Shown piece after piece: positions 6,351 through 64,000 of a DNA stretch of 64,000 nt. The DNA lies in contig CM119264.1 of assembly GCA_051294375.1 (NCBI GenBank), positions 12,650,263-12,714,262 on the forward strand, written 5' to 3'. Source of the stretch: Paraspadella gotoi. Lineage: Eukaryota > Animalia > Chaetognatha. Position 1 is the first letter of the stretch. Each line of letters begins with the position of its first letter. Under the pieces are notes generated by a model. It was not told the DNA's origin. It saw nothing but the letters and a program-made list of their open reading frames with translations, and did not search any database. The translations under genes and the position numbers were made by a program.

Positions 6351-6681
6351 TTGAACCAACTCTCTTTCTATCGGTTGACTTTTGTTTGCAATTGAAACCC
6401 TCGTTTTGGTTATTAATTTGCATCTTAGGGGTGTGTGTTTTAAAATACGCCTAATATACAGATTTAATAATATATAATCTGACTGTAGTATTTTAGTTTA
6501 CTCTTGTATTTATATATTTAGTTTTTATTAAAAAAAATAAATCTTTGTACCGCTGTATGGTGTAGAAAAAAATATGTTTGAAAAATAGGTCTTAAAATTC
6601 TTTCTCACAGTACAGTTCGGGCGATCCTTATTTCCTCAGGTTCGGAAGAAGTGTGAGGAAAAAATATTTTTGGCGTTCGGC

Positions 6682-6843
6682 ATACTTACCTGGCTCAGAG
6701 GATACCTTGATCAGCAAGGAGGTTCCTCCAGGGCGAGGCCCTTCCATTGCACTTCGGTTGGGCTGACCCTTGCGATTTCCCCAAATGTGGGAAACTCGGG
6801 AGCATAATTTGTGATAGTGGGGTCTGCGTACGCGCTAACCCCT
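6682..6843 (+). ncRNA. U1: U1 spliceosomal snRNA
   Basis: Starts ATACTTACCTGG. SL1 loop GATCAGCAAG, SL2 loop CATTGCAC, SL3 TTTCCCCAAATGTGGGAAA, Sm site AATTTGTG, terminal SL4. About 162 nt. Confidence 0.97.
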
Positions 6844-7343
6844 TATTATGTTCGGGCGTTTTACTATATTAATATTCGTAGGGAACTTTCTACAGATAAG
6901 ACAAAATAAGCAGATTCACGCGATTAATATGTGCTCCTTTCTCTTGAGTAAATCAATTTCCGGTGATCGATATTCTCGCCACGTCTCGACAAAACACTTA
7001 ATAACGTCCGTCTAAATCATCTTTCGGCATCGTGGCCGTTTTTGGATCAAAAGGTTTCTGGTTCGAGGCCAGTTCTAGAATTTACACAGTTTCTTGATAA
7101 AAAATTAGAAATAGCTTTAGGTTTAACTTAAAATTAATGAATGTGAGTTAGCTTAATGTTCAATCACCTTGCAATAATGATCATCAGCATTGCAAAAACA
7201 ACAACAATAAAGTCGCGAGCTTTTCTCTGACGCAAGCAAATACGTTTATCCTTGCCTATATAAGGAAATAACTTTGATACGAGAGGCGCGGTTAGTCTTT
7301 ATATACAAGCTTTACGTCTGTTGCGCTTTATGCTCCGTCGATA

Positions 7344-35800: not shown

Positions 35801-36821
35801 CTTAAAATGTAAAATTTATAAAAAAATTCTTAGCCTTTTATATTTATAAATAATATTAAAAAATAATTATTAGGATACAGAGCCATATAAAATTTTTTTT
35901 ATCCATTGAAAGATATATTAAAAATGTAGAAATTTTTGTTTGAGCTTGTACTCACTCTAAATTTTTGACTCACCCCATTGAGTGCGGTTACCCCTAATTA
36001 TAGAAAAAAGAATCATATGGTCAAAACCAGCTTAAGTTAAAGGGTCAAACGTTATGCATTTTGCTTTTTACCCCCATGGTCACTTGGTCCCCTTAAATAA
36101 AGAGAAAAATAGAGAAAATAAAATGTTTTCATGATTTATGTTTACAATCTCTGCTGACCTGGAATCGTTATCTTGATCGTAGGTTGAACCGATCCCCTTC
36201 TTTTCGTCGCTGTCGAAAAGATGTCCCGGTCGGGCTCCGCCTTTCCGTTTTATTTTTGGAGTGCTGTGCCTAAAGTCTACAGCTTGATTGAGTAGGTTAC
36301 TTTCGTTGTTTTGGCGGCCAGCCGAGCCCCTCCTTGGACAGGGGGTTCCGCTGCTCCTATCTTCGCTATCCGAGACTCGCCCCGAACGGGCTGCCCCGAG
36401 CTTCGTCCAGTTTTCGACGTCGCCGGCCGATTTTTCCGATTTCGCTGGAAGATTCGTTTCATTCAAGACTGAAGGATGATTCGCATCGAGTCGTTGTCCC
36501 TCGGACATAACCGTCCGGAATGGGAGGGGGAGATCGAGCTAAAAGTATCGATGGTCGAATGTTTAGAGCGGAGACTCGTCGAGAAGAGGTTTCACGGTGC
36601 AACTAAGAATGGCAATTGCCACGCGGATTTACTGGACAGTAGCAATACAAACATGATTAAACAAGATTAGCGGCAAAAAATTAATTTTATCAAATAGTGA
36701 CAAAGCAGTTACTCTCTCACCGTACAAGCTCACCGTCTGTTTTAAACAAAAGAAACTTTAAAAAGATAAAAAAATATATATATTATAAATAACTAAACTA
36801 AAAAAAGGATACCGCCGACAT
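32859..36821 (-). CDS. Sphingomyelin synthase family protein, multi-exon; 5' exons uncertain
   Basis: AHDRYPD..PLPD, YLYRCVTMIITNLP, CGDWVFSG|HT, GHDHYTLD, R|LFWIYH, YFECNV, WPLPWP. Stop at 32859. The low-complexity N-terminal exons at 34.8-36.8 kb are tentative. Confidence 0.88.
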
Positions 36822-40650: not shown

Positions 40651-43600
40651 TAATAATAACATACTTTGAGGGAAACGTGTCGCATGCAAGTGGCGTTTTC
40701 CCAGTTGTCCAGCTCAAGTTTGGCATTGGGAATGGGGTCCCAGTTAAGCGGAGAGAAAAAGGAAATTGAGAACTTGTCAACTGTGGGCCAAACGTATCGG
40801 ACGTCTTTTTGTTGAGGTTCAAACTCCCTGTCCTCGCCAGTTTGGCGGACATACTCGGTTACGGGTTCCTTAAATATGCATGAACGAATTAGGAAATTTA
40901 ATAAAAACATTCTTTGATCATTTATTAACTCACTTCTGTGCTGAGGCCGACGGCATAAATCTTCGCAACAGGATGGTAAACGATAAAGTGTGGAGTGCAC
41001 CGCAGAGGAATCTTACGGATCGGCCAAGGATTGTCGTAGGAGAGGTGGGTCGGAAGGATGCAAACCCGAAGGTCCCCCTCACGGTTGAAGTAAAGAAAGC
41101 CAGTAGGACAGTTAACGTTGTCAAAAGGAGCAAAGCATGTTACGCCGCCGTCTTTGGAGGGTAAAAGGGATGCAAGAGGCGGGTGGGAGAGGAAAAAAAA
41201 ATAATGAAACGAAAAGAGCAAGAACATCTAATAAAAATTATTACCGTTTTTTTTTAAAGGCTAAAGGTAATACCTACTCACCTACATTCATAGGGTGCAG
41301 CCGAGGAATGCCTCTGATCGTAATGAAAAACCAGAATGGGAAAGTGCCGGCGATGAAAACCCCTTCATAGCCAGACACGTTAGAGAAAGGTCTTAGCATC
41401 CGCGTCCACGTCCTCGTCTCCGGATCTACTGGACGAAGCCCTCGACTCTTTTTCCGGTCGCGCAAATTGGAATCGAGGAGAACCTTGCGAAATCTGGGTT
41501 AAAAAAAAATAATAGTAACATAGAAGGAAGAAACAAGTATGGCAGAGAAAAAAAACCCTGTAAGTATATAAGTATAACAATATATGTATTATATATAATA
41601 TATATAATATATATAATATATATATAATATATGTTCAAGATAATTGCTTATTAGGGTGTAGTGACGAAAAGATTGAGCGAGGGAACAATGTTTTTTTGCT
41701 GCTTTTGTATATGTAATAAAAAATAAGTCCTTTTTCAAAAGAAATTTGCATAACAGTATCATTAAATGAATTTTTTTTATAGTAAATCTTATCTTATAAA
41801 ATCATAAAATTTTAAAATCATATTTTTTTTAATTTTAAGAACATTTTCGGATTCACCGGAAAAAAATGGAAAACTTTTGTAAAATATGTTACATGATATT
41901 TTTAGGTTAAAGCTGCGAAAAATGACCAAAAAGTTTCATCATATAATAGTGGAGAATTTGACCTTTTTTTTCATTTTTAACGCTGAAGACATTGAAATTT
42001 TCAATAACATATTTTATATTTTTGATCTAACTTTTTATGAAGAATCAGAATTTCTAATAAAAATTATTAAAAAATTATTTTGAAAACTTATGATTTTATA
42101 AGGATATTACTATAAATATATTATAATTAATGATACTGTTCCCAAACAATATAAGCAAAATATTTTTTGTACTCCTTAATCATATCTAAATCTAAATATC
42201 CTTGTTTGTTAACTCAAATAAAATTTATGTTCCCCAGTGCTCCACTCTATTGCTTATGGTCTAGCGTATACACTGCGGCACAAAAAGTAGCCTCTTGTTA
42301 GCTTTAAATACCCCCACTATTTTTTTTTAATTTGAAAAAATTATTTATGAAAAGTATTGCTTTTTTAAAAAGCTACCGATTGATGCAAAATAAATTAATT
42401 GGTTCAGGTAACAGATTACTGCAATACTTTGAAGTCAGAGTCTGAAAATAGAATTAAGAAAAAATAATTTTTGAAAATTAAGTTGATACTTCTTTTTTTA
42501 ACTGATGATAAAAGATTGCTTTTCTATCAAATTTCCTTACTTTTCCTGACTTTTGATGACTAAAAAATATTTTGTACTAATCAATTTCAACGTCCTATAA
42601 CTTTTGAACGTTTTGCTCAATTTTATTGAGACTTTGACCAATTGCTTCATCTTTCAATATGCTTTGTTTTATATTTTTATATCTTTATAAAATTGAACCA
42701 TCCAATATGGTTTTTTCCATTTGAAAAAATGGCTACTTTTTTTGCGCCGCAGTGTACAGTCATGCCACTTAATTTCAGACTTTAAAAATCACCATATATA
42801 CTTGGGTTTTTAAAAAAAATTTTAAAGTTAATTAAAGTTTATTGAAATATAATAAGTTTGGTATAAATTATATTAAAATCGGGCATTCCGTTTAGGATAA
42901 GTTATTTTTAAAAAGAAAAACGGCTCCTTACAAATATGTTTTCAGATAGAGGGATGAGTCTATTTCACTGGATTCCCCCATTACTCTTCCCCATTCTCGC
43001 TCGAGACACCTTTTCTTCTTCCTCTTCCGCCTCTTTTCCTCCCTTTCCCTTCCTCCTCATCGAGCGACGACAGAAGGAGCAAAGAGAGAGATTTTAGTTC
43101 TGTCTTGGGTTCTACTTCAGCTCGCGAGCTCCCTCTCAGAGAATATACTTTTTTTGCCTATTTTTTGGACTTTTCCTTTGACTTTACTCATAGAGAGATA
43201 GAGATGATGGACCTACCCATCAGTTAGGTTTTATATCATAAGAAATACCAAACCTATACCTTTAAAACCAATTATCATTAAACTCAATAGAGTTTACGGT
43301 ACGTAGCTGAGCTTATGTTCATCCTTAAACCTATTAAGTTTTTTTATAAATACTTCGGAATCATCATCTAATTTGTTCATTCATGAATTACTTCCATCAA
43401 TAATAAGTGATCCATTTAAAAGCTAAGTCCTTTAAATAAATTCAGTTCGAGCAAATTAAAAATGGCATATTAAAAATTGAATCACTGTAAATGAGTCTAA
43501 ACCTATGGCTTGAACATTTTTCATTCTAATAACAACCTAAAAGTTTTTGAAAATAAAAGACACATTCAAATATATTGTTTTTATTACATGAAATCAACAA

Positions 43601-46600
43601 CCAGATTTGATATTTCATTCTGTAATGTATTTGCCTACATAATCCCACAAATTTTACTAGAGCTGCGACTTCCTTTAACAGAATTAAGCTGATCAGCGCT
43701 TTTAGCTACATTTACTTGACCATCAGAATCTGAGAGTCCACCACGATCGAGTTGAATTGAATTCAAGATCGTCGCAGTCAATTTCCATTTAAATGTGAGG
43801 TCCTTGGTAACTCCGGGGCATAAGTCGGTTTCCCGTTTGTGTAATTCATCCCTCATGGAAATATCTAACTCTGTCAAAACCGTTTTGTTAGTGCCCGAGA
43901 TCAAAGCAGAACTATTGGTGATTTCAGTAACATTGGGTTGGCTGGCATGTTCGCCACACAGCCACAACATCTTTCCTGAAGGTAACAAACAACGTTTTAG
44001 AGAATAAAAATCTTTTTTCACTAGACTCATAACAAAAGATCGAAAATGTAAATAAGAACTCTTGAAGTAGTCGGATTTATCATCATGTGAATTAACTTCT
44101 GAATTAGACACTTTCAGCGTTTTCATGATTGAATACATATATAAAATAACTTTCTTGGCATTTTCACCTCCTAAGCAATCAATATCAACACATGCCGTTT
44201 CAAGGATGCTATAAATTTTGGCTAAATAACCTGCAGAATGCGTCAAAACTCGTTCTTTTTCTTCAAAGGACATGTTATCAACATTAATAGCTGTAACCAC
44301 ATGCCAACCATGTTCATTTTCACATAAAAATTTTACTTGCCATGTGTTTTCAATAAGTACCTTTACACTGAGCGTAATGTCAGAAATCTTTAAGTCAAGC
44401 AAGATGAGAAAAGGGAGAATTATGTCATCTGCAGAATATTTCACGATTTGTCGCAAAAAACGCCGTTGTACAAGCTCTTTAACTTCGAACAATGACTGAA
44501 TCTGATTATCACCAGTATCACCCAGGGAAAAACTTTGATTTTCCTCGGGATTTCGAATGTTACATAATTTTTCAGCCTCCATTAATAGATTTTTCAAGGA
44601 AAGTTCTGAACCTTGACGCATGTCTATCAAAGGAGCCCTTGCCTTGTTTAAAAGCAACATTCCTGCCTCCGTCTGCAACCAAGAATCAGAGGTTCCAACT
44701 AGCACTGCAATTATAGGTTTACCCAAATTAATAATGGAAAATCTGAGTTCCATCATACAATTACTGCTTTCTGCATATTCCTTTGAAACGCAAACCAGAA
44801 CCATTTGGGCATTCTTCATACCTATTGCAATATCTTCAAAGAGACCTTGTCTTCCTGCCTGCTCAATGTCAATCCAACATGAAAGCCCAGATTTTTCTAA
44901 AAATTTTTTTAATTCCCTTGGATCACTATTTTCATTAGCAAGCGCTGTTTCAATCAAAGGTGTACCCTTTTTAACTGCGTCATGACTATTGTACCAGCAG
45001 TAAGAAACAAATACCTTCAATTTAGAATTTTTCACAATTTGCGTAAGCCCCTCTAATTTGAGATTAAGCTGTTGTTTTAGCTCCAAAACTTTATCATCAA
45101 AAACATTAGGATTGGAAAAATTTACATAAATTTCTTGCCCGATGACAAGACCAAAGTCAGATTTTTTCCAGTTCATATTAGTATCAATGAGTACAACCAT
45201 CAATGGTTTTTTTAAAAATCTTCCAGCATATGAAAATAATTTTTGACAAAAATCATCTTTTTCATAATTGGTAGAAACCATCATCATAAACAACTTAGTA
45301 TGTTTGATAGATAATAAAACTTCTTCGTAATCAAGCTGACTTGTTATTTCTGAATACCAAACTTTGTAGCCCCATCCATTTAACAGTTTCTGCAATTTTG
45401 GAGGACAAAGATCATACTTTTCAGTTAAATCAAAATTGCTAAAAGATAAAAATATATCTGATTCAAGTTTACTTGTTAATTCCTTCATCTCATATACGGT
45501 TTGCTCAAACTGCAAATCAAAGTCAGAAGCACTTGAAGTTGGAAGAACAGCTTTTAACTCAAGCATAGAAATAGTATGAAAATGCTTCTGACACTGTAAA
45601 AATGGTGCCCTAAAATCTATCGCTTTTTGAACGAGTTTTTGGGAAAACATGGCAGGATCGTATGTAAATGTTTTCATACAATCAGGACAAGGCATTGAAA
45701 AATCATACACAACTCCAAGAAAAGATTCAGCAACCAAATTTTCAATTACTTCATGGAAAAGTAATATTAGGTTTTCTGGCCGAGGTCCCCGCACTTTTGC
45801 TTCTAACTGATTTTGTTTTTGTTCAATTAATGCTACCAACCGATTCTTTCTCAACAATGTTCCTCTTTTCCAAATTTTAGAATCATCAGCGAATTCACTT
45901 AGACGAACTTGTATCCGATTAAATAATCCTGGTGGTAAATATTCAAAATGATAAATAATTTTAGAACGTTTGTAATTGGGTTCAGAAACGTCAGGCCAGT
46001 CCAAGTCAACAGGGCAGGATTCCGGCAATAAACAAGGAACTATGCTCATTGATTCTTTAATAACCTCGTAGGTTAAATCAAACTCCTCAGTTAACTTTAA
46101 AAGCCAATTATGCATTGCTGGGTCATAATTTTTCCATATTATTGGTAAGTCTCTGTGATATAATCGACCTTGCTTAATGGGACTGTCTTTGACAGATACA
46201 ACACATGCCATGACATCTACAATCCATTGTGGATCTACAACAAGAATATTTTTCAATAACTCTGTATCAAAATACTGGACAGAACCTAATTCATGTAAAA
46301 ACGAAATCGCCTCTTTTATATCTTTTTCTTCAAAAATACCAACCTTGGCAGCTTCAATCATTACATTTTCCCAAGTAATTGTTTTAGTTATGGTCCTCTT
46401 TGATACAATGATCTTCTCTAAATCTAGGTAAACACTCGGGACTAACTCCCCCATGTATTTTTGGTGTAATGTAACTTTAATTAACTCATCTCTGAGTTGA
46501 GATATTCCCTGTCCAGTTATAGAACTAATGAAATAAAATCCGATGATCTGAGGAAATTTTTTTTTAAGTTTGTCGATAGGAATTTCAATGTTGGAAACTT

Positions 46601-49600
46601 TGTCACAATGACTACCAACAATAAAAATTGGAGTTTTTGGCGCATGACACGAAATTGAGCTTAACCAAAACTCCAATCCCGCGTGTTCATAACCTAATCT
46701 AGTTGTCCACAGCAAAAAATATACAGCTCGAGAGGTCAGAAAGAACTGATGAGTATTATAATAAACAGTCTGACCAGCAAAATCCCATGCACTGAAGCGT
46801 AATTCTCTGCCTTCTTCAGACATAACTTTCCATTCCACAATATTAATTCCATCTGTGATTTGTTCCTGGTCAGTTCCCATCGTTCGGTTGGTACTACTCA
46901 TTAGAGCACGCAAGAGACTAGTTTTTCCTAAACGAAAAAATTGTTTTTAAAGATCTATGAAAGTAGTATTCACTATTTATTTTATCGCCAAATTATGTCA
47001 AATAAATAATTATTATTATCTCGAACATGTTTTAGGCGCATTCAATTTCTTAATTTTTTAAAATGTTTATTCGCATGCGCTTATTGCAAAAAGTGGTTAA
47101 AATTCACTAAAAACATGTCTGAAGTTTGGTTTTATGAAAAAAGTATAAAATCTTTCAATTCCCATTAGAATTTGTTACAATATACTGAAGAGGTGGTAAA
47201 AATTGTTATGAGTTAGTGACAGAAACGTTCAACATAAGCAGTCCCTGAGCTTCGGATCAGGCTGTAACACCATGTTACAGGCGGATTAAGCGCCCCGTCA
47301 CTCTTAACTGCTAGGCAATTATCTGGCTAGAACCCCGGACCTTTGGGTTGGGAGGCGAATGACTTGCCTCCTGCATCAAAAGCCACTGATGAACGGTTGG
47401 TGGATTTTTTAGTATATTTTTTAGTATATTTTCACCAAACTTACCGCTTCCACCCAAACCAACTAGCATGAGTTTTGTCCTCTGACATTCCACATGACCA
47501 CCATTGAGTCGTCGCAAATAAGCTTTGATAGCCTCGAATCCTCGTTTAATGATTTCGATTGGTGGAGTTTTCAACGACGGGCAATGGGATACATTGAAAG
47601 TGTTTAGTAATGATAATCCTCCAAGTTCATATGTAATTGTGTCCAAAAAAGGATTGTGATGTAAGGACAGTTTTTCTAAACTTTCAAGGTTACGGATTTC
47701 GTTGGGAATTAAAGAAATAGATTGATATGAAAAATCCAATATTTTAAGCTTTTTCAAACAAAATATTTCGGGTGGAACCGAAGTGAATCGGGGAGTAGCG
47801 AAAAACAGTTCCGAGTTCAACAAAGCACCCTCTCGAGAAGAAATAATTCCATTCTTGTTAATATCACACAAATTAAAGAATGAATGGACGTTGGTGAGAT
47901 TAGCTAATGCGCAGTTACATTTAAGAAAATTTTCGTACTTTTCTTTTGTAAATGTGACATCGAATTCGCACCACTGTATTCCAGAAATATTTAGTTGTTC
48001 AAGTTTGAATAACTTTTTAAAAGACTCGGGTAAAATATTTAGCGGATTTGAAGACAAATCTAAACTTGTAAGATTAGATAAATTACCAATATGTTCAGGA
48101 AGAATATTGATGCAGCAATTAATTAGACTGATTTGTTTTAACGACTTACAATTGATGACACTTTCTGGAAGTACTCGTAAAGGAATATGTCTACATATAA
48201 GGCAATGCAAGACGGATGATAGACCAATATCAGCGGGAAGAAATTCAATTGCAGCTTCGGTTCCTCTATATTGGATTATCTGAAAAGATTCCAATTCAGA
48301 ATTACCTATTTTCGGTATAAATTTCAATTCAGAAAAAGGATTTAAAGCAAACTGATGAAGATTTGGAAATAACTCAAAAAAATCGTCAGGTAAATTCTGA
48401 CTTAAAGTACCAGTCAAAGTAATATCCACAATAGCTTCCGCATGCACTAAAAGGTCAGAAATTACTAATGATTCTGGAAAAATCGAGGCTGATGCCAGCA
48501 TGTGTGAATAGCAAGGTGTCGGACCAGAATCCTCTCTTTTAGAATAATAATAATTTTCATAGGCTTCTTTTTTTGCTAACAAAGAAAAGTGATGTGCATA
48601 AACATTAAGTATATTATAATTAACAAGCATTGTCTGTTTCTGTGTCAATTTATGAAATGAACTGCAAATAACTGGTTTGGACCTAAGCATTAGGGTCAAA
48701 ATTATTACCATTGAAACAAGATCTGGCGGCACATCATCAAATTTAATTTGTTTATTTATGTGTAACATTGTATGATTTTCCGATTCTTGATCATTTCTAA
48801 TATAAAAATATGTATATATACAGACAGGAAAGTAACTGTTTACATTAAATAGGTCATTTAATAAAACCGAGGAAGATTGAGGGAGCGGGAACATAATTTT
48901 ACAATCTTTATCTTTTAATCTATCAAGGAACCCAAACCATATATCTTTAGGTTTAACAGAAAAAACTGATTTTTTCCACATCCAATGGGAAAGTGGTAAT
49001 AATCGACATCCAACTTTTTCAAAGCATTCCAAAGGTAATTTAATCAGATTTGATGTAGTATTTTCAATTAAATCTGGGAATAACTTAACAGGAACTTGGG
49101 CTTTTTCGAAATATTTTGATTTTGATACAGATTCTTTAAATTGAAAAGGAATTTGAGGAAACTGAAATAAATGCCTCATATTCTTTTTACTACTATTAAG
49201 AAAAATGATGGAATATTGGGTATCTTTTAAGAAACCTTGCTTTGTTAAAGTACCATTCACACTTACATTTAACATACAAGGATAACTTATGGTTTCATAT
49301 TTTTCTTCGGTCAGCAATAATTTTCTAGAAGGATCTTTATCTTTAACGCACTCAAAGGAGTGAGAATAAACTTCTTCTTTTGATAAATCACTTAATTTAT
49401 TTAAGTCGAAATCAAAACCTGCTTTTAAAGTGTAAATTAACCAAATTTTTTCGGGAACATTTTGAAAATTAGAATCTATTTTTACCACTAAATTGCATAA
49501 GGGTTTGATAACCCCAAGAGGGGGTGAGACTGTTACCAGGGTTTTATCGGGAACTCGAAATTTGAAAAACATGTTTTGAGCAGATTTATTCAATAACTTT

Positions 49601-52600
49601 ATCTCACCCCACATATTATTTTTTTTACCTGATAGTAAAAGAACTTTTTCCGTTTGTGGTGTTACAAGTACAGGACCTGGTAATACTGCTGGTACTGGTT
49701 TGAAATACCTCAACGTTTCAGGACCATTCCAAGAAGGTAATGCAGATATGGAAACAACAATAGAAGGCCCAGGAGCAGCATAAGGAAAATACGCACATTT
49801 ACAATCTACTGACAGCGTTTCAATAAGTTTCCCATTCACAAAAAAATTAAGTTCCTCATTATAAAAATCTAAAGTACATTGAATCACGTCCTCCAGAGTT
49901 AAACTGATATCGTAATTGAATAAATCGATCAAAAATTGTTCTGATAACAATGAATTATCAATAGGCAATCCTGGTTTCAGCTTTTTAACAACCCCAATTA
50001 AAAGTTTGCCTTCAGAGTCTGTCACACTTTTTATGACTAATTTATAAGTATTACATTTACTAGATAATGGCCATCTTCCTTCAATGCAAGTATCAGATAT
50101 TAATAAATCATCAAGAAATTCTTGTTCGAATTGCCATCCTTTTAATTTTAACTTGCCGTTTTCTATGCCACCTGGGTGAAGGGCAAAAGAAATATCAACC
50201 CTTCCATTGTTCTCCTTAAAAGTATATTCATTGTTAAACTTGGTCAAAATTGACGGTTCACTTGCAACGTCAATAAAAGTTTGTAAAGACAATGAGGGAA
50301 TTTCTTCTACATCTGGAAAAATCATGTAGGAACTCGAGAAATCATTACTGACTAAAAATATTTTAATCATAGAATCACTAAAATTGTCCACATGGAGCGT
50401 TACGTTTCTAGTCGTTGAAAGACTGAATGGAATATCATAATACTGAGCAAAAAAATTATCAGTATTACTTAAATTATAAAAACTGCAAGGAAATCCACCA
50501 AAAAAATGTGATTTTAAATTCCAAAGCGTATATGCACAACTTTTGCAAATACCGCAATCGCGACAGGTGTACGCTGCTCGATTGCATTTGCATCTTTGAC
50601 TTTGGTGACTTAAAACTCGCGAGTATTGGCAATTCTGATCAAATGCACAATGTCCACCAAAAGTACAATTTGTAATAGATTTACTCAGTACCCAACGATG
50701 GTTTTTAACGATTCCATGTAAACCATCTGGAAGTACTATAAATTTTGATGAAAATGAAGAATCTAAATCCATAAGAAGTCCATCAATAATTTCTTTGCAT
50801 AATGAAAAAGCAGTCCAAAAATTCTGTTCTTGAGGCGTCAGCTCTGAAACATGCCCCGGACTATTAGAAGGATTGCTTTCATAAATTTTTGTATGAGCAA
50901 TTAAAAATACCTCGTCATTTTCAACTTTAAGTGCAACCTCTATTGAGCCACAATGAAAAATTCCAGCATTTTTGTCAAGATTTATGAAATTCATGATCTG
51001 GGAAAAAATAGTAACTATTAAAGAAAAAAAATTCAATGGCAACCTTCCATTTGAACTATATTTAATTTCTTTAAAAAACTTTTTATCATAATCAATAAAA
51101 GCAAAATTTTGTTCTTTTTCTCTCTTCCCTAAAAAATTTAACACTCTGTACCTTGGTTGCGCTAAATCAGTTCGCGGACATTCGACCTTTGACAAAATGC
51201 CACACAGAATCAGGACTTCATGAAAGTGATGATAATCTAGATTATTTTCGATGAAATCATGAAAAAGCATTGAACAAGCCTCTTTCTGATGAAAATATTC
51301 AACAAGATCGCAAAAGTCTGCAATTTTTCTCACGTAATGATGCGATGAACCCGATCTTAGTACGTAAATCAAATTGTGGGACTGTAAAATATTCAGAATA
51401 GCCAGGATAGAATTATTAGGATATTCAGCATTCAATAATTTACCAAAATCATCATCGGAAAAGATATTTCCGAGATGAGGTAAAATGTCAAGAGAAAATT
51501 TTAACACAGGCTTCCAAAATACTAATTTTTTTAAAGAACCTAATTTTACACAGAGGAAATCTAAAATGTACTTGGCATCTTCAACCGTCTTTAACGTCAT
51601 AGGCTTTGTGTGAATTAAATCTGAGATTAGCTGATAAACACGAAGGTCAAAGTCTGTTTGGCGGCACTTCATTGTTAATTCTTTTGAGTCTTCTTTAAAA
51701 TTGATAATGGTCAAAAAATATTCCTTAAGAGAATCGAAAATGCTCGAATTTTCTTCTGGACTATCAGAACCTGTCTCAACGAGCATCAAGCTCAAAGGAA
51801 TGTCTCGAGCCGTTGATGAAACATCACCTCCTAAAGTTGAGAGGATGACGGAATTCATGGAAGAATTCAAGGAAATGGCGGGATGCAATCCTCCGCCAAG
51901 ATAAAGAAATGAACCTTCCCAAATTCTCAAGCCGTTCAAATTGAGGAACAATTCTATTTCCGAGCCACAGAGCAACTTCTAGACATCGTTTTAATAATAT
52001 TTTATTTTTTATCCATAAATAGCTCAGAGTAAAGTTAAACTTATACTAAAACACAAAATTTAATTTTTGGTTCCCCATGGAACCGGGGTTCTTTATGGTT
52101 CTTCCCCACCAACAGAAGAGCATCTGCTCAGCAAAACGCGACATCTCCAGCCAAAAAAACGAAAAGAGGATCTCATCCTCTTCCCCCTCCCCTCCACTAC
52201 CACAGTGCGCAGCCACGAGACAATCACTCGTAACCAGCAAACCAGGAGGGGGAATCCCACTTGACCGGATGTCGTAGAAGGGGGGGGATGAGAAGTCGCA
52301 AAAACCAGTCCATGGACGAAACCGAGTCTGGAAAACTTGTCGGCCGGACGAGGCAATGGCCAAAAGAGCTGTCGGGCGATCAGTTGGCGTCCTTTAGCAT
52401 TCCTGAAGCCCTAGGGTGTGCCAANNNNNNNNNNTTGGCACACCCTACTGAAGCCCCACCCTTAAGCTTGGGAGGCGGGAAAGACTTGCGAGGCCTGTAG
52501 GGATGGCAAACAGGATTACACGGACTGCCACGCCCATGCTAGCAGAACAGGCGCAATTGTGTCGTGCCCTGGAATGGAAAAGCAAAGAATGCATCGCTTG

Positions 52601-55600
52601 AGTGATGTCTGGAACGGTCTCCAAAATTAAACGCTGTGGAAGGCGGAGAACTGGACAGAACTGTCTTGAGATCCAAAGGGGCAGCGTTGACTACCATGCG
52701 CTGAGACTCGGAGAGAGCCGTGCCAAAAATTGGCGCCAAACCTGACGAGACATCTTGGCAAGATCGAGGTAGCCTGCGTCGACTGCACCAGGCCCCTCTG
52801 AGCGAAGAGCCTCGACCATGAGGCGGAGAGCATCAGCGACAGACAGCATGAGCGGATGCTCCGGCGTCTCTCAGGATGCGCTTCAAAGCCATGAAAGGGC
52901 GCGTCATCTTGGAGTCCTTCCGAACGGCGTCTAAGCAGCAAAACTCTTGAGCGGGAGGACAAAACTCCACCAGAGAGAAAGCTTCCGACCAACGCTTGGT
53001 GCGCGCATTGGCGGAAAACACATCCCACAATGGCAGGACATTGTCCGGGTCGACTGCGCAAGTCTCTCCACTGGCTCAGCAGTCAGCACCCACTCCAAAG
53101 GCATGACACAAAGTTGTCAAACCCCTGACCCGACTCTTCTAAGGAGGAACCCTCCTCAGAGGCGTCATCTACTTGCGCTGATCGAGCTTGACAAGGAAGG
53201 CCCGACCCAGACACCCCCTCGGAGCATGAAGGCCAATCCGCCGCCAGAGGCCGCCAGTTGCTGGCGCTGTTGCTGGCGTCAAAACAAAAACCGACAAAGA
53301 AAGGTACAGAATGGCAAACAGAGGCGTCAAAAAAACAAGGAAAAAAGAGAAATCATTGAAAATAATAAGTCTAAAAAAAACCAAAAACAAAAACTCCACC
53401 CAAAATGAGAACAATCGAGCTTGAGCTTGAGCTCGAGCTCGAGTGGGTGGCTTTTAGTGGGGAAGAACCATGAAAAATCCCGGTTCTATGCGGAACCAAA
53501 AGTTCTATCATGTAGTTCTTCCCCACCAACAAGAGCCTATAATGAGACAGGCAAAGGCCCGACAAAACAAAAAGCCGAGTTAGGTGGGGCACAGGAGGAA
53601 AACCCCTCTGTAGACCAAATGAACGGCAAAAAAAGGCCTCAGCAGGGAGACTGAGCGCGGACAGAAGAAGTGATTCTGTCTCGTGGCTGCGCGCTGAGAT
53701 AGTGGAGGGAAGGGGGAAGAGGAGGAGATCTTTTCATTTTTTTGTCAGGAGATGTCGCGTTTTGCTGAGCAGATGCTTTTCTGTTGGTGGGGAAGAACTA
53801 CATGATAGAATTTTATATCTCGTAAATCATATTAGCGGTTAAAATGAGAGCCTATGAGAAAAGAGGAAAAAAGACGCAAGCAACAAGACAGATACATATT
53901 ACATATTTATACATAAGATAAAATAAGTTAAGATAAGTTTTCATCCGAAGCTTTCATTCTCAAGTTTACAGTAATTTCAATATAAAATAATCAGTAAGTT
54001 AACCAGAATGTTATTAAAACGATAACCACTGGTGATTTTCCTTTAGAATAAAATCCGAGTTCGATTTCATCTCCCGCGTTAAACAAATCAATTTTATTCT
54101 TAAAGTCCTTTAAACTCTTCGCGTTTTTTGCGCCGCCCATGACGTCAAAACCAAAAGATGCATCAGTCGTTCCGGGAATTAACTCGAGAGGATGAGATCT
54201 GGGAACAAAGCCGACGACTATGGCGTTCTCGACTTCCCTCTCCACAGAAATAATCTTAATTTTAAAGCTTTTTTCCGAATGATCATTAAGCGAAGACGAT
54301 GAAACAAAGACTCCAGGTTTTTTATCGGGATTTTTACATTGTTTTAAATAATATTCCTGCGAAATCATCGAAGTTTCTATGTATCTGTACATTGGTTCAG
54401 GGGCCCTAGAGTCGTCGGAGACCGCGGGGTCGTAGTAATTTAATATTCTTACTCGTTCACCCTGACTATTTAAGCTTATCATTGGCAGTAGGCCCAACTT
54501 TTGACTTCCGTCCGAGGGGCTCTTGAAATATTCGCCACGAATTCGCATTCGATGAATTTCCACGCTATTTAGCGTAAAAAAAACGTCTAAACCAGTCATG
54601 CTGACGTAATCTGGAGAAAGGTGGTTGACGTAACAACCTATAATGTCTCCTTGGCGAATTCGGGGCGGATTCACAACTGGGCTTTTTGCTTTGTTACAGG
54701 GAAAGGAAAACCCACTTATGTGAATTCTACCTTCTGATCCGTGATAACCGATGCACCCATGTTCCGTACCCACTGCCTTGTTTTCTGAGCATTCGAAGAA
54801 GCCCAAACCTACACAAATATTCCCTTTTTCTCCTAAATCCATTACTTCGACCTGGAAGCCACTAGCTTCTGAAGTTAAAATTCCGTTGGCTTTGAAGACG
54901 ACGGGTTCAACTGTTGTTCCCATATCACCGAATTCTCCATCTGGTAAAAGATACGAGTGCAAGGGAGAAAAGTATCCATGACTCAAAAATCTCCAATTCA
55001 GGAGAGGGTTCTCAATTACTTTGTCTCTTTCGTTCATTAGGCAAAAAATGTCCGTCAGAAATGTATATAGAAATAAGAGAAGTGGATTTAACTTCTCCAT
55101 CTTCGCAGTCAACTTTTCTATTTCGCTAAATGGGAGACGAGCTTTTTCAATCGTGGCCCTCGGAATACTAAAAATGTCGCAATATTTTAGTTTCGACAAA
55201 AACTCGTCAGCAATGTCATTGAACCTCGTCAATGCGGAGATTCCCAAGAGCTCCAGGCAAGCTCCGACCAGGCATCGGGACTCTACGCTCCATTTCGACG
55301 ATATCATCTTCGTCAAATTTAAGATCGGATTCTGAAAAAGCGGTGAAGTAAACATTTTGGCCGCGCTGTGTATAGTGTTAAACATCTTGAGACAAGCATT
55401 ATAAAATCCCTTTTCGCCTCTCGGTGCTGGAAAGTCCAAGAGCGTGGCTGCGTTAATTATGCTAGTAACATCCCTATCCGATTTCATGAATTGAAGGTAA
55501 GGAAACAATCCCGAATGATGATAGAAAAAAGCATGCTCCTCCACAACTTGGTCGCTTCGCTTCCAGACCAAAGTGAGGTTTTGACCCGGAAGTACGGACC

Positions 55601-58600
55601 CATCGAGATTGATCCGGTGGCCACTGGACACGATTCCCACGCTAATGAGGTCTCCTGCGCTGCAAGGAACGCCCGAGGCCTTGTTCGCGTCCGATTCTTT
55701 TAACGACGACGACCCAGAAGAGACTCCAATTTTTATTGACTTGCTCATTACTTTCTTGATCCGGACGCGAAAACTTGAATCAGAATTAGAAAGTGATTGC
55801 AGAAAATTGCAAAGCGGCAATTTGGCACGTTGTGAAGAACGATTCTGAGGCAAGAGCAATAAGTGACCATCTAAGGTCAAAACCAAGTTCCCACAGAGGG
55901 CCGAGTAAAATTGTTTTGACACATGTGCCAACGTCGATGAGGCTTCTCGGCCCTCTTTTTGGAGAATCTTCAGCCTGTCGACATACAATCTGGCGCATTT
56001 TTCAACATGCTGTGCAGCGCCACTTGCTCCGTCTGCAGTAAGATCCACGGCAATGATAACGTGATCAGGCGGCGAGGAGACGACGTCATGTAGTACGGAA
56101 TCTAGGGAGGCTTCCACGACATCTAGAGTAAAAGGCTGTAAGGCATCGTCGCCATTGCATTCTAACGTTGTTGATTCTGTGTCGTGTCGCTCCGATGTCA
56201 AGTCTTTGGACTGTAATGCCTTTGCGACGGAGTGACGGACGTTCGAAGAGGGAATAACTAAAACGTATCCACGACGGGAAATAAAAAATCCTTCAGTGTT
56301 TTCTTGTTTCTCAACATCCTCGCATTTCTTCTCATACCCCAGCAAAAAGTTTCCGCGTATCTGCTTTTCCCGGCTGACTGAAAAAGGTCGATAGGTCAAT
56401 CCAGTCAACGGCATACGCAACTCGCAAGTTGGCGGACAAACTAGAGACAAAGCGTCCCAGGCGTCGTTGGTCAGACGGAGACATCCGCAAAAGTCGATCG
56501 TCGAAAGTTTTGACGAGTCGCTTAGTTTTTCGCACAAGGCATAGACGCCTATGTCGGTGAGAAAACCAAGGCCGCGAAGAAGAAGGCGACGAAGATGCCT
56601 TTAGAGAAAGAAAAAGCAATAGAGATAGAAAACGAGAATTTGCAATTAACACTGACGAACTAACGCTAATATTTTCTTAAAGTTTATATCAAACAACCCA
56701 AAATATATCTTTAAAATAAAACAAAAGTAAAACCGACCTTAAATCTAATGCGTGTCTCGAAAGAGTCCTGATCGCCGCATCCACGACACGCGGACACCGC
56801 GAGCGAATTTCGACGACGATCTCCTCGCGAACGACGCATCTCGATGCTAAATTGTCCAGGAAGTCGCCGAAGGCGATGAGGGGAAAGGCGAAGGGATGGG
56901 CAGAGTCTGCGACGACCTTGTCGAGAGGAAAGGTCTCCGTTTCCAAAGAACCAGGAGAGGAAGTGCTTTGTAGCAAAAATCGAATGTTCCAGTCCTCGGG
57001 TGGAAGGTCGACACCGAAGGTAGCGTCTTCGCCTTCGTCTTCGACGTCTCTCTGCTTCCAAAAATCGCGTTTATTGATGTCCTCTAAATTTTCAGCTAAG
57101 GGAGGCGGCGACGGCCGCTCCGGTCCAGAAGGGAGTTTGAGAGAAAGCTTTGAAGTATTCATTTTATAAAGCACATTTTTTTAGCTGGTAGATTCCGAAT
57201 AACAAAGCCCATCATCCAGTTGCATACTGTAAAGCACGTTGAATCAATTCAACCCGCAGTTATTTAGTTTATCGTAGATTACTTTAATTAATTTGGCCAC
57301 TAGTTTGGTTAGCCTTTTGATCCCGCATTAATTAACACAAAGAGCGAAATAAATTTTCAGTGGGAATTACGGATTTTGAACTCTGTCGCCAAGGGAACGG
57401 AAGAAATCTTTGCGTGTCGAATTCCAAATACGTGTTGTGTAAAATAGGTTAAGGCAAAGCGAAAACCGATGTCGAAAAAAAACCCGCTATCCAAAAATCA
57501 TAATAAACGGTCTTGTCTCATCATGCCTCATCCTAGCTAGAGCAATTATATTGACTCAATGACAATTTAATGAATTATTCCTGAACCCTATTAATTACCT
57601 GATCTTTAGCCTTCCCCCGGAAGCCATGGAGTGTTGATGGAATGGGAAGCATTCGTAAACAACCAATTCGTCCTCCACTCGCGCCAGGAGATAGGGTTTC
57701 CGACCGCCGGCGCCCAATCCCGTCAAAGCTAACTCGGAGATTAGGGGAGTCTCCTTTTGAAGCATTTGTTGCTGGTATGCCGCCTTTTGGTTGGTGTGAT
57801 CCGGCACTTGAATTGAGATGGAAATTTTGAAAACGGTTGAATGTTATGTTGGAAATGTTGTAAAAAACTGAGTAGTATTGATTGCTACGCTTTTAACTTG
57901 AGGTAAGTAGATTTCTTTATTTGTGAATTACGCAAACCACCAGTTAGACATCTGATACCTAATTCATTCACTCACCAGGGGCAGAACCGTGTTGGTCGGC
58001 TAACACTCTCGGACGCAAGGAAAAGTTTTTTACGGCATAACAAAGTTTAAAATCGGGCATTGAATAGAATTCCAGTGCCCCATTTTCGCGACCTATCGCT
58101 GCCCACGCCGAGCGCCGGGCCGGTCGAGAATGCGTCGCCGGTTCCGGCGATAGGGGATTTCGAAAGTTGGAATCGAGGGGAGGACGCGAGCCGGAGGTAG
58201 AGGGTTTGGAGGAGGAAGAGGAGGATGTCCCATACAGAAGAGCCTCTTCGTCTTCATCGCCGTCGATATCGCTGTAATGAGTCGAGTTGAGTAGAGGGTC
58301 AAAGATAAGGAGAAAGGTAGATCTTGTGATATTGTCCAACTGTCCTTCCCTCCCTCGCTCCCAACTTACTCGGCCTTTGCCTCGCTTTTGTCGAGCGACA
58401 GCGCGGCTGCCAAATCCGCCCCAACGGCGGAGAGAGTGGAATGTTCGGGGAAAGGGTCGACGGTTGGCGACTCAGTGGTGAAGAGGCCCGAGGAGTCGAC
58501 GAAGGCACAAAGGGCGACCACCTTGGACGGCGGATGCTGCATCAACGGCGCGCGACGTACGGTGAGGTGAGGACCAGAGTCGTCTTCGTCAGAGTCCTCG

Positions 58601-60864
58601 TCGTCGGCGGCGGCGGGGGATTCGTCTAAAGGGGTAGTTAACATCAAGTTAAAGTTAACGGGCAATGGTCTCAAATAATATGAAAAATACGTCACCATGA
58701 AAGGTTAGGGCGACTACGACTCCCTCTTCCGTCATGACGAGAAGATATGGATCGGCAATGGAAGCAGCGACAATTGGCGATCCCACGTCAAAAGGAATAT
58801 GTTGGATCTGTTGGACACCTTCCAATAAACGTACGGACATTGGAGATACCTGAAAAATATTACAAACTTAAGGAACAAAATAAAACTTTTTTATTTCAGC
58901 GTAAAAAAAATTCAAGTGATTCAGACTTAATTATTAACAGAACAAACAATTTTCCTCAAATTTTCTCGATTTAACTTTTATGAATATTTATTTCCACCTG
59001 CACAATGAACTTGTCGCATCCAATATTGCCGGCGAAAACTGTGGGACCTTGTGTAGCGAACCCCGACTGATCCAATTCCATGATCTCTTGACCAGTCTGT
59101 AAAACCATAGTTCCATCCTCTCGACCAAGAATGAGAAAGGAGTGAGAGTCCTCCTCTCCTTCGCCGCTCTTGGCCTTGAGCGTCCACATGTCAACGCATC
59201 CTGGAAGCTCGAAGGTGGTCACGACCTACACAACATTTTTTTTACATACCTCCATAAAACCGCCATACCATAACAAATGTTTTAAGTATAAATGAAACGG
59301 TAAAAATTATGAAGACTTGAATAGTTTCCTGACACTTACCTGAGGCCTGACAGCACGCTGCAGGATGGTCAGTGCGCCGTTTTTGCCATGTCCCGAAGTG
59401 AGAACGAGCTCGAGATCAGGAGAATCGCTAGATTCAAACTCTTCGGAGAGAAAGGGTGGCTCTCCAATTGTCGAGTTTCCGCAGGGACCGATGTTCAAAA
59501 TTGAGTCCGACACTTCGAAGTTGTAGGTGGTGATGGTTTTTTCCTTCGGGATATAATAGAAGTAAAACTAAAAACCTAACTCACACTCCCTAAGTTCATG
59601 CTGTTCAATTTTCATGCAATAACCTTGCATTCGAATAAAAAGTATAGCCAACCTTTTCCTCGATGTTTGGGTAAAAGTCGAGGTCGTCTTCGTCGACCTT
59701 TTCTTTGCGATCACCGTCAACTGGATCGTCGCCCGCCACCCACTCCCCCATCAAATCTAGCCGTTTCCGTTTTCCTGGCGGCTCCTCTGTGTTGTTTCTT
59801 CGACTGGGTACGTAGCGAGAAATGATAGGGGGAATTCTTTTATTATTATATATTATGTATTATTATTTTTAATAATAAGTCAATCATTTTAATATCCGAT
59901 ATAAGAAAACTTTTTATCCATCCCTTCCAGATGATATGAGAGAACCGGTTTGACATAATCTGTCAATCTGTCAATTCGACTGCAATTACCGGCGCTGCAC
60001 TAGATTACACGAGTTGATAGGCAAGTAACTTAATCACTTTACCTCTGCCCCTGGATGCTAGTTCCCAGGCCTAACGAGACGTCAGCGGAGGCCGTCGAGC
60101 TTTGATCTCCCTTTTCGACGTACTTCAGGAGCAAAGAATTACCAAGCCGCGATCCCAAAAACAAAAACCCGTTTCCGCAAACCTGATTGAAATTGTAAAA
60201 ATTTTCGCATTGACCTTGATCAATATGATGGTCATCATTCCCATATAATCTTTTTTTATTTATTTTTTCCATCATCTGAATTTACAGACAGATTGTGAGC
60301 TTCTTCATCTTCAATCGTTCAAGTTCATCACTCCAGTCACCATTCATCGCGTTGATTTTATGTACAATAAAAAAATTTCGATGAGGTAATTTAATTAAGG
60401 CAGTTTTTTTACCGTCATGCAAGTGGTGAGGACAGAAGCGGCGGCTCGATCGAAGTGAAATCCCTTGACAGCCCGCATTCCGTCGAGAAGCAAAGTGATC
60501 ACGTAAACTTCGCCCGTCTTGAGAGACACTGCAAGACGGTCGAAGGCCAAAAACGCGGCGTTGGCGCAATCTAGGGAGATCTTGACGTTCTGACCTAAAT
60601 ATGAAAAAATCTCTTAATTTTAACTTTTAAACGCAATGTGGAATTTAAACCCGCGTTCATTAGCTAACCCTGATTTTGTAAGGGAAAGTTAGTGTTTCCC
60701 TTGGTCAATGAATTGAGCGAGACTCCAAAAGGTGGGACACTTTGATTAAGGTACAGGAGCGAGTTAACAGCGAGAATAAGGACGCCGCCGATGGGTTTTG
60801 GTACAGGGAGGACACCGTGGCAATCGAATGGGAGGGAGGAGATCGACCAGATGATCGGGTGAAC
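38338..60864 (-). CDS. CPSF1: Cleavage and polyadenylation specificity factor subunit 1 (CPSF160), partial; N-terminal ~280 aa lie beyond the window
   Basis: [62 protein letters not shown]-like, [25 protein letters not shown]-terminal NILDGELL...VASHF*. About 20 GT-AG-bounded exons. AATAAA follows the stop. Confidence 0.96.
40029..40560. mobile_element. Tc1/mariner-type MITE in a CPSF1 intron
   Basis: TA|CAGGAAGGTCCAGCTCTTATGG ... CCAAAAGAGCTGGACCTCCCTG|TA terminal inverted repeats. Confidence 0.8.
42271..42754. mobile_element. Tc1/mariner-type MITE
   Basis: TA|CACTGCGGCACAAAAAGTAGCC ... GGCTACTTTTTTTGCGCCGCAGTG|TA. Confidence 0.8.
43580..43585 (-). promoter_or_regulatory. Candidate poly(A) signal of the nested Roco gene
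   Basis: Minus strand CATGTAATAAA (UGUA plus AATAAA) ~50 nt after the stop, followed by a GU/U-rich tract TGTGTCTTTTATTTT. Confidence 0.55.
43635..57162 (-). CDS. Giant Roco-family protein (~3,607 aa): LRR - degenerate Roc/SPRY repeats/COR - SPRY - MSP - LRR with EF-hand - Roc-COR - TIR - TIR - C-terminal domain - CaaX; nested in a CPSF1 intron
   Basis: Exons 57162-56738, 56598-~54027, 51978-47445, 46927-43635 total 10,824 nt with compatible phases. P-loop GLGGSG|KTS is split by intron 3. [68 protein letters not shown]-terminus CGIM*. Confidence 0.88.
47237..47312 (-). ncRNA. Twister ribozyme-like fold, type-P5 permutation (family 2), best-preserved copy
   Basis: Minus strand: [P5 AGCAGUU]-AAGAGU-GACGG-GGCGCU-UAA-UCC-GC-[P3 CUGUAACA UGG UGUUACAG]-[P4 CCUGA UCCGAAGC UCAGG]-[P5' GACUGCU]. 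T1 CGG/CCG, T2 GC/GC. Predicted cleavage 47288|47287. Confidence 0.72.
47237..47400 (-). mobile_element. tRNA-derived SINE-like element family 2 in Roco intron 3
   Basis: Minus-strand head CAGTGGC...GCCTCCCAACCCAAAGGTCCGGGGTTCTAGCC (tRNA-like, B-box-like). Homologous to 62046-62168. Confidence 0.65.
52064..53814 (-). mobile_element. Internally deleted DIRS1-like (tyrosine-recombinase class) retrotransposon
   Basis: Imperfect ITRs at ~52098-52228 and ~53669-53798. ICR at 53457-53531 is complementary to both termini. TTTT at both junctions and no TSD. Decayed gag-like ORF and possible RT-ORF start on the minus strand. Confidence 0.82.
52412..52447. mobile_element. TIR DNA-transposon ends flanking an assembly gap, inserted in the DIRS element
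   Basis: TAGGGTGTGCCAA-(N)10-TTGGCACACCCTA with a 9-bp direct repeat CTGAAGCCC at 52403-52411 and 52448-52456. Confidence 0.75.
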
Positions 60865-61947: not shown

Positions 61948-62045
61948 GTTCGTTTCAAAGAATTTATGATTGCTATGACGATGGTGAATTTGAAATAGGG
62001 TGAAGACTGAAGAGACAGTTTAATAGTTATGAGTACTCAATATTA

Positions 62046-62168
62046 GCCGTCCCTAAGCTTCGGATCAGGCTGTACTCTGATGTTACAGGCGGGTTAAGCG
62101 ACCCGTTACTCTTAACTGAAACCTGGAACTTTGGGTTGGGAGGCATGCTTCCTGCTCCAATGGCCGCT
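62046..62168 (-). mobile_element. SINE family 2, second copy, with a twister-like fold (62046-62118); predicted catalytic G replaced by A
   Basis: Minus strand: CAGUUAAGAGU-AACGG-GUCGCU-UAA-CCC-GC-CUGUAAC..GUACAG-CCUGA UCCGAAGC UUAGG. Confidence 0.65.
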
Positions 62169-62934
62169 TTCTCAAAAAAAGTTATGAGAAATACCATGAT
62201 GGAAAAAAAAGTGTCGCGGTTACTTTCCAGTTATTTTTCGACATTTTAATGTAAGAATCAAAAATAACATTTAAATATAAAAAACTTTGGCTTTTTGTGA
62301 TTCATATAAGCTGTATCTCATTTATGTATGACAAAAAATACAGGAGTTCTTTGTAAAAAAAAATGCGTTGTCCAAAAAACTGGTTTCTTTATTTTTATCT
62401 TTTTTATATCTACACTTTTTATTTAAACTCAATTACTCATTTCCGGTTCTTTTTTATTACTTTTTGAGTTTAACCAATACTATTAAAAATCCCTGCCTTT
62501 TCTTATTCTCATATCAAATAGTTATTGCATTATCTCCATTAGGATAGATTTAGGAATGAATCTTAATTCATATGTTAAAAAAAGAACAATATTAAAAATA
62601 CATTGATGCTATAAATTTTGCAGAATATTATTTTTAAATTATAAAGTATCAATAAATGTTATAAGGTTCTGGGTAACCTTTCTATAAACAAAGTTATCAT
62701 TTTTATTTACTTTTGGATATATTATCAGAATCAAGTATCAAACAACTCCAAAAATAAAAAAAATAAAGATTTTACTAAATGAAAGAATGAATTATTATAT
62801 TACGCAGCAACAAATCAAGCCTGGTTTACTTAAAAGAGGATTAATATTTTTTCACTGTTTGCTAAGGACCATTTTTTACCCCAAATTTGATAAAAAATAT
62901 CATATCAGAAATATAATTTTAACAATAATATATG

Positions 62935-64000
62935 TGTTTTATTCGTTTACAACAATTAGTTGAAACAGTACATTCAAAAGGGCATACAGCATTACAGATA
63001 AACGCATAAATTGTACAGTTTACAATTCAACAAAATATAAATATTTAAATTAACAGAACGAAGAAAAAAGAAAAAAAAAATCAACAATAAGCTGACAAGA
63101 TTTTTAGAATATTGTTTCTAGAGGAAAAAAGCTTGGATTCAAAGTTTTTTGATCTACAAGCAAAAATTTTATAGATATCATTATATCCAAATGAGGACCT
63201 TAATGATCGTACACTCTCCCATCTATTCCAACCAAAAATTTTTCTAATGCCATCATTTATTGCTACATTTACTTTGGTCATATCTTTTGCAAGATACTCT
63301 TTCACTTCACTTCCGTACGTAAGTATTGTGACACAATTGGTGTAGTACAAACGCATTAAAACTTCTTCTGAGGGTTTATATAAGGAATTAAGGAGACAAT
63401 TGCTAGAGCGGTAGAAAGAGGATAACTCAGATAATGGGTCAAAGACAAATGCTTTTTCATTACTAAGATTAAAACCGAGATATTTCCATCGGTCTACGAA
63501 TTCAATGATATTTCCTTTAATTAGTAAAGAATCTTTGTTGATACAATACTTTTGTTTGCCAAAATACATTGTTTTTGTTTTCTTAAAATTAAAACTAAAA
63601 GCATTGCTACTACTATAGTTAGCACATATATCAATCATTTTTTTCATACCAGAAATTGTTGGAGATAACAAAGCTATATCGTCAGCGTAAAAAATGCTAG
63701 CAGCAAATAAATGATCTATATGGCAACCAAAACCAGATTTTCGTAATTGAATTATCAAGTCATCAATATAAACTGCCCACAGATAGGGACTTAAAATACC
63801 ACCCTGACGAACCCCAGAAACAATAGAGAAATAATCTGAAAAGATGTCAGACCATCTACACCTACTGCGGAGATTAAGGTACCAGTAAGTAATAAGTCGT
63901 AAAAAACATAAGGGAAATTTTCTCTTTATGAGTTTTAGAAATAAACCATAATGGTTAACCTTGTCAAATCCTTTTGAGCAATCCATGAATGTAGCAAACA
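62935..64000 (-). mobile_element. Non-LTR retrotransposon (RTEX/CR1-group-like) 3' part: RT ORF 63081->63986 plus 3' UTR
   Basis: DCSKGFDKVNH, SGVRQGGILSP, YADDIALL, FNFKKTK, KYLG in an uninterrupted frame. AATAAA near 62940. Confidence 0.9.

Follow-up and report, generated by a model that had tools for sequence, protein, structure and literature searches.

A 64,000-nucleotide (nt) stretch of the genome of the chaetognath Paraspadella gotoi (contig CM119264.1, positions 12,650,263 to 12,714,262; hereafter the window) contains on its minus strand, at about 47186–47438, a non-coding element of about 250 nt. On balance, we read this element as a decayed copy of an abundant short interspersed element (SINE) that has a head resembling a transfer RNA (tRNA) and a complete type-P5 twister core, the latter likely selected as a slow or conditional ribozyme. 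That the SINE body derives from a real twister is very probable. A first-pass annotation had proposed a SINE fused to a self-cleaving ribozyme at 47237–47400. The fusion is borne out by the abundance of the family (family 1) and by compensatory changes relative to a second tRNA-headed family with the same type-P5 body (family 2) in the window, and the interval then given is included in a longer element.

The twister core

The type-P5 class of twisters is said to have been described by Roth et al. in 2014. All of its core parts are present, in P5 order, in the 76 nt of the minus strand at 47237–47312. The 5′ strand of P5 (47306–47312) pairs at all seven positions with the 3′ strand (47237–47243). 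Inside it, 47295–47303 contains the 3′ strand of P2 (47303–47300), the catalytic G and the conserved A (47299–47298) and the CGG strand of pseudoknot T1 (47297–47295). After a 6-nt self-complementary segment (47289–47294), which can pair with itself through G-U, G-C and C-G, comes 47281–47288, with the predicted cut site U|A (47288|47287), a second A, the 3-nt 5′ strand of P2 and the GC strand of pseudoknot T2 (47282–47281). P3 is an 8-base-pair (bp) hairpin with all eight pairs formed (47262–47280), and P4 (47244–47261; 5 of 5 pairs) is capped by an L4 loop, U-CCG-AAGC, which bears the partner strands of both pseudoknots. T1 pairs with CCG at 47255–47253 (3/3 Watson–Crick) and T2 with 47250–47249 (2/2). 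The core nucleotides GA, U^AA, GC and U...AAGC are all in place, and each twister element (P5, GA, T1, UAA, T2, P3 and P4) lies where the first-pass annotation had put it.

Two parts of the structure are weak. P1 is vestigial: only 6 nt separate T1 from the cut site, and a monomer forms at most one G-U pair there, across a 4-nt loop. With the majority letters of the family, P2 consists of two G-C pairs and a bulge. The window copy has one pair fewer, a U.U opposition at the first pair where the majority has C-G: position 47285 is C in 96–100% of the family contig depth and 47300 is G in 97–99.7%, and both are U here. The irregular P2, 3 nt facing 4, had earlier been given as a reason to doubt activity. 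The pattern is real, but a 3-nt strand is natural, being found in 6/6 Rfam twister-P5 matches of virus record G001, and the 3-versus-4 arrangement is common to both SINE families of the window.

A relaxed P5 descriptor matched once in the 64-kb window, at 47237–47312, against an expectation of 0.047 core matches per simulated window of that length (150 simulations). The simulated 22.5 Mb yielded six core matches, none with P3 in addition and none of the full structure. Folding energy taken alone was not significant (z = −1.72). Rfam, to which the first-pass annotation had looked for confirmation, gave none: a scan of the whole window returned a U1 small nuclear RNA (snRNA) as the sole match, and no twister match appeared at any threshold. 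This miss is likely due to the P5 model RF02684, which has a long P1 and contains neither P3 nor P5. As the element falls below the gathering threshold, we describe it as a twister-type variant and do not file it as a member of RF02684.

Searches beyond the organism returned no further member of the family. Metagenome contigs with the same conserved letters gave 31 matches, all 31 with a P4 run of fewer than four pairs and none element-like. Searches of viral contigs for family copies gave 2, 0 and 0 matches, the two without P4. No copy was found in phage records, and the two weak matches of model R2 in 151 prokaryote genomes were not twisters. In a search for naturally occurring P5 twisters whose P1 is very short, none was among 33 matches in prokaryote genomes (two of which were type-P1 twisters), and among 225 viral matches one was a real twister, with a long P1. 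Type-P1 twisters were seen in archaeal (L277, 121–161) and planctomycete (L293, 121–175) genome bins. Virus record G001 (C1:4174–6218; loci L259 and L260) carries six type-P5 twisters, 280–600 nt apart, each directly upstream of a purine-rich tract and a start codon.

Family 1 and its relative in the window

Around its twister, family 1 follows a SINE-like plan. Its 5′ extension (47387–47438) comprises a short hairpin, whose left arm is shifted in the window copy by an A/T-rich insertion, and the 5′ strand (47398–47390) of a clamp helix that joins it to the 3′ tail (47186–47236; 3′ strand of the clamp at 47231–47223). The clamp has 9/9 pairs with majority letters and 8/9 in the window copy. 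Between the extension and the twister lies the Gly-CCC-like tRNA head (47314–47386), decayed here, with an A-box-like (47379–47368) and a B-box-like (47334–47325) segment. Family-1 copies have fixed ends. The 5′ end is marked by the small hairpin, roughly 30 nt before the tRNA-like start, and the 3′ end by a CTCTTCA motif, which is also present in the second family-1 copy; tail-length variants finish in this one common motif. Loose contig ends pile at 47408 in all six sequencing runs that hold the family (87, 8, 15, 65, 15 and 55 contigs). An imperfect inverted repeat of 19 nt (79%; 47171–47189 and 47420–47438) brackets the window copy, as if an A/T-rich palindrome had been split in its middle by the insertion.

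These abundance data come from contigs of eight public runs aligned to the element, six from the same organism and two from other organisms (B and C). Each of the six contains between 158 and 7,418 family-1 contigs, with 7,418 and 5,447 in the two DNA-type runs. Runs X5 and X6 have the same records and probably represent a single data set; run X2 may come from the sample that gave the window. X5 and X7 are taken as RNA by guess, given that the exon end of the Roco gene hosting the window copy is covered and the unique intron flanks are not, which fits RNA without proving it. In the two deepest runs the summed depth is about 10^4 times that of unique flanks, a rough indication and not a copy number, which suggests thousands of family-1 copies. 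No family-1 contig was found in the runs of organisms B and C, which does not prove absence there. The sampled copies are dispersed monomers with mostly heterogeneous flanks, each end unlike the other. The flank consensus of the sampled contigs contained no head-to-tail tandem copies, with rare tandem loci possible. A tandem retrozyme as the main form was dropped in view of the heterogeneous, non-tandem flanks, and a reading as a long terminal repeat (LTR) element or terminal-repeat retrotransposon in miniature (TRIM), based on TG...CA ends, because the flank consensus lacks a primer-binding site and a purine tract.

We compared the window copy with the family majority at 14 positions at which they differ. 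The majority letters give a 7-bp acceptor stem and a 5-bp T stem, together with the first P2 pair and the full clamp. ARAGORN calls the majority head a tRNA-Gly(CCC) at a relaxed threshold of 88, with 9 of 1000 shuffles called at 85. No tRNA was called by ARAGORN in the head of the window copy at the default threshold or at relaxed thresholds of 85–95, and Rfam gave no tRNA match. The tRNA-like head of the first-pass annotation holds for the family and has decayed in this copy, which also has a run of four T inside the head (47381–47378). The second family-1 copy (62008–62167, minus strand; 85% identical over 82 nt) has A in place of the catalytic G at 62107, partly broken P3 and P5, deletions in the head, and neither the 5′ extension nor its complement. 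Directly upstream of its head, a 12-nt tail-like piece in a small hairpin (62177–62188, resembling 62022–62033) may be the remnant of a head-to-tail junction, or may be due to chance. Both family-1 copies in the window are decayed passengers. The catalytic G47299, A47298, A47287 and A47286 show no change among the listed 40 of 46 variant rows, or among 25 rows in a second run set; variants listed inside the twister affect one junction base, the loop of P3, two CpG sites and the outermost pair of P5.

Family 2 is laid out in the same way. Copy a (8211–8355, plus strand) has a tRNA-like head, recognised by 6-bp acceptor-like arms and a canonical B box, followed by a P5 twister, and lies in sense orientation within the intron after an SLC6/SNF exon (8022–8186). 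Copy b (4180–4248, plus strand) has a perfect P4/L4 and a deletion that removes the cut-site segment; a short simple-repeat run follows it at 4291–4329. The flanks of family 2 are unrelated to those of family 1. Based on a model built from family 1 alone, copy a is the best non-self match in the window (E = 0.027–0.029), and the same model also touches all six Rfam P5 twisters of G001. Copy b was then found with a three-sequence model (E = 6e-7). Family 2 was aligned with the family-1 model, this alignment replacing MAFFT alignments that were out of register.

In this alignment GA, UAA, GC and U...AAGC are in register, with no change to the catalytic core in either family. By contrast, 8 of 28 pairs have changed on both sides among the three sequences: two of three in T1, four of eight in P3, one in P4 and one in P5. 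None of 500 shuffles reached this number, and slid controls gave 0–3. T1 and T2 are entirely Watson–Crick in all three sequences, T1 being CCG/CGG or UCC/GGA, and the first P2 pair is A-U in family 2. In each family the P1 segment consists of a 6-mer complementary to itself, the letters differing between the two.

Predicted cleavage, proposed damping and alternative explanations

Both pseudoknots and the catalytic letters are conserved, and the family RNA would, more likely than not, cleave measurably in vitro. How a SINE could tolerate this is a difficulty, since a cut behind the head would separate promoter from tail, and the SINE would be expected to be truncated by an active ribozyme in that place (PMC5786205; here and below, papers given by PMC number are cited for those parts of their text that were available). 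The simple end-processing role suggested by the first-pass annotation is so far unsupported on this ground, and no end piles at the cut site were found among the loose-end piles listed for the six runs (six per run). The retrozyme-like mobility that it also offered may still apply, although most flanks are heterogeneous. We propose instead that cleavage is damped. Transcription by RNA polymerase III (Pol III) would span head, twister and tail. As single RNAs, most molecules would then stay uncut, held back by a rival hairpin that the T1 strand forms with the P2/T2 strand and by the vestigial P1, and full-length RNA would be copied back by a reverse transcriptase of the long interspersed element (LINE) type, so that copies carry head and cut site together. 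We infer damping from three observations: head and cut site stay together in the copies, the rival hairpin dominates the predicted fold (pairing probability 0.99; −28.5 kcal/mol versus −21.3 for the twister-like nested fold), and in run X5 6/8 listed contigs bridge the cut site by at least 31 letters on each side. The folding program ignores pseudoknots and magnesium, and the rival hairpin may lose in reality.

Cleavage at U47288|A47287 would occur in a minority of molecules, with an encounter between two units as the most plausible trigger. The self-complementary 6-mers of the two units could then form a shared 6-bp P1, swapping halves; this swapped dimer is predicted to be more stable (−54.3) than two native monomers (−42.6). 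The cut halves would stay paired through P5, P2, T1 and the 9-bp clamp, and their 2′,3′-cyclic phosphate and 5′-OH ends could be rejoined or circularised by tRNA ligase. The shared P1 is proposed by analogy with Penelope-like elements and amphibian retrozymes, whose hammerheads cut as dimers via a short stem (PMC6765202, PMC7761336); in retrozymes, RtcB ligates the cut ends (PMC7229834). That cleavage would depend on the dimer is a hypothesis that we regard as doubtful. It is unlikely, in our estimate, that the families form a SINE superfamily with a functional, P1-less P5 twister body that would cut only as a domain-swapped 'double twister' via palindromic 6-mers.

The window copy itself would be a passenger, with its broken acceptor stem, internal T4 run and lost P2 pair. 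The first-pass annotation had suggested that it could cut the pre-mRNAs of the Roco gene and of CPSF1, in whose introns it lies. The geometry and the intact core, T1 and T2 fit that idea, but the weakened P2 and the predicted misfold (P4 pairing probability 0.07) do not, and this copy likely cuts them little if at all.

Several observations weigh against a selected, slowly cleaving SINE ribozyme. The match to family 2 is weak, the non-twister stretch 60622–60690 scoring E = 0.077 with the same model; that stretch was rejected, as it overlaps the end of a CPSF1 exon and has no L4 loop. Narrow Rfam scans up to E = 10 gave no twister or tRNA match for either family. The covariation is in effect one comparison, of three sequences from two families in an alignment fitted to the proposed structure. 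The compensatory changes anticipated by the first-pass annotation exist between the families and not within family 1, where the differences between the two copies break pairs and change none on both sides. The 6-mer of the 62008–62167 copy is not self-complementary, and the swapped dimer is not the best dimer fold (−69.2). The bridging contigs are of unknown strand and may be DNA. Pol III usually initiates closer to the tRNA-like start than the family-1 5′ end, about 30 nt upstream, which is unexplained for a Pol III transcript. No target-site duplication was found at either of the two family-1 copies, both decayed. Finally, cleavage is argued from sequence and predicted folds.

One alternative is a non-catalytic relic, in which a 5′ ribozyme piece of an RTE-type LINE came to lie behind a tRNA head, was permuted by duplication and was kept as a folded body. 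A tRNA head, an RTE 5′ piece and a tail make up a common SINE plan, in which an active ribozyme should cause truncation (PMC5786205), and twisters are located at RTE 5′ ends (PMC8501958, PMC7761336). A relic would also fit the retained cut site and the dominance of the rival hairpin. We nonetheless think it doubtful, given that the stems of the two families differ on both sides of pairs while both pseudoknots, the catalytic G and the AA of the cut site have been kept. In addition, the RTE twisters described in these sources are of type P1 and cut at the 5′ end, and a route from there to the P5 order is not shown.

At the other extreme, the ribozyme could be fast and monomeric, with sense copies cutting host introns co-transcriptionally, splicing rescuing the transcripts, and new copies arising via rare tandem loci or religated circles. 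The core, T1 and T2 are intact in the window copy. In tested type-P1 twisters P1 is dispensable for cleavage (PMC5408937) and imperfect P1 and P2 are tolerated, whereas broken pseudoknots are not (PMC11662667), and the Schistosoma hammerhead SINE works from multimers (PMC6765202). A fast ribozyme is nevertheless improbable here: no end pile at the cut site is among the listed loose ends, the flanks are heterogeneous and not tandem, contigs of the runs guessed to be RNA bridge the cut site, and the window copy is predicted to misfold. We consider it very improbable that family 1 is a non-autonomous DNA element, Helentron/HINE-like, carrying an old tRNA-twister SINE as cargo. The 9-bp subterminal inverted pair, the hairpin at one end, the A/T-rich flanks and the lack of a target-site duplication are features of such elements. 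The copy at 62 kb, however, has neither the 5′ extension nor its complement, in family 2 head and twister recur between unrelated flanks, and tail-length variants share an end motif.

Genomic setting and known systems

The window copy lies in an intron of 517 nt (46928–47444, minus strand; GT-AG, phase 1) that splits the Roc P-loop of a very large, intron-poor Roco gene (43635–57180, minus strand) with SPRY, MSP-like, LRR, Roc, COR and TIR domains. This gene is flanked by CPSF1 exons on its own strand, one ending at 57598 and the other starting at 41495, and thus lies within a CPSF1 intron of about 16 kb (approximately 41496–57597); a scorpion protein shares 62% identity with one CPSF1 exon. 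The GT-AG intron and the exon geometry agree with the sense placement in both pre-mRNAs given in the first-pass annotation. Another Roco intron contains a G+C-richer insert (52050–53814) bounded by inverted repeats of about 130 nt (52098–52228 and 53669–53798; 89%). It looks like a non-autonomous DNA transposon, and three frames tested gave no Pfam match. Elsewhere in the window are the U1 snRNA gene (6682–6844, plus strand; 154.7 bits in Rfam) and acyltransferase-3/HGSNAT-like exons (3185–3829, plus strand). Two palindromic elements resembling miniature inverted-repeat transposable elements (2212–2352 and 41752–42140) and two further two-copy repeats (6168–6352 with 35818–35999, and 32413–32520 with 62988–63105) complete the repeat content noted.

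Earlier work has described twisters, Schistosoma hammerhead SINEs, type-P1 twisters located at the 5′ ends of RTE elements, and SINE bodies derived from RTE. What is new here is a second tRNA-headed family in the window with the same P5 architecture. The literature searched contained no tRNA-SINE with a P5 twister, but most subscription papers, Repbase and Dfam were beyond reach, so that absence from print is not established. If the ribozyme is active, the P5 permutation, which is known mainly from microbes, would be present in thousands of animal loci, many of them intronic and overlooked by the standard model, and it may be the first twister working as a dimer. If the double twister is true, concentration would decide whether a Pol III retroposon is copied at full length or is cut, religated or circularised, and thousands of such switches would sit inside host introns. 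If the ribozyme is inactive, the element is still a SINE body traceable to a ribozyme, and what such conserved bodies come from and do is an open question. A full twister core is retained in both families, which bears directly on the published argument that a live ribozyme behind a SINE head should be self-defeating (PMC5786205). The available parts of PMC10085705 and PMC5408937 do not mention a tRNA-SINE with a P5 twister.

With the type-P5 twister model RF02684 the element shares the strand order, GA, UAA, the T2 GC, the U-nnn-AAGC loop on a 5-bp P4 and both pseudoknots, as well as the 3-nt P2 strand of all six G001 matches. It differs in having a 6-nt segment where the model has a long P1 hairpin, in its 8-bp P3 and closing P5, neither of which the model has, in a P2 of two pairs with a bulge or mismatch, and in the T1 letters (CCG/CGG or UCC/GGA); it has no Rfam score. 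Schistosoma Sm-alpha is likewise a Pol III-type SINE with a self-cleaving ribozyme, but its ribozyme is a hammerhead in tandem repeats, whereas ours is a twister in dispersed monomers (PMC6765202). The twisters at the 5′ ends of Perere-3/RTE elements also belong to animal retroelements and have a weak or missing P1. They are, however, of type P1, their copies begin at the cut site and they have no tRNA head (PMC8501958, PMC7761336); our element has an internal cut site, preceded by the strand with the catalytic G. The supplement of PMC8501958 contained no family motif.

The SINEs Bov-tA, HaSE, CoeSINE4 and others have a similar plan of head, conserved body and short tail, with the body shared among families (PMC5786205). 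The available text of that paper mentions no ribozyme in these bodies and argues that one would cause truncation; in its supplement none of four family motifs was found and a fifth gave an unrelated match. Finally, animal non-LTR retrozymes and the dimeric hammerheads of Penelope type are, like our element, small non-coding retroelements with a ribozyme (PMC7229834, PMC6765202, PMC7761336). Their palindromic stem is unstable and favours dimeric cleavage, as proposed here, and ligation is by RtcB. Theirs are hammerheads in tandem arrays, for which the available parts of these sources report no internal promoter, whereas the element described here combines a twister with a tRNA-type head and occurs mostly as single copies.

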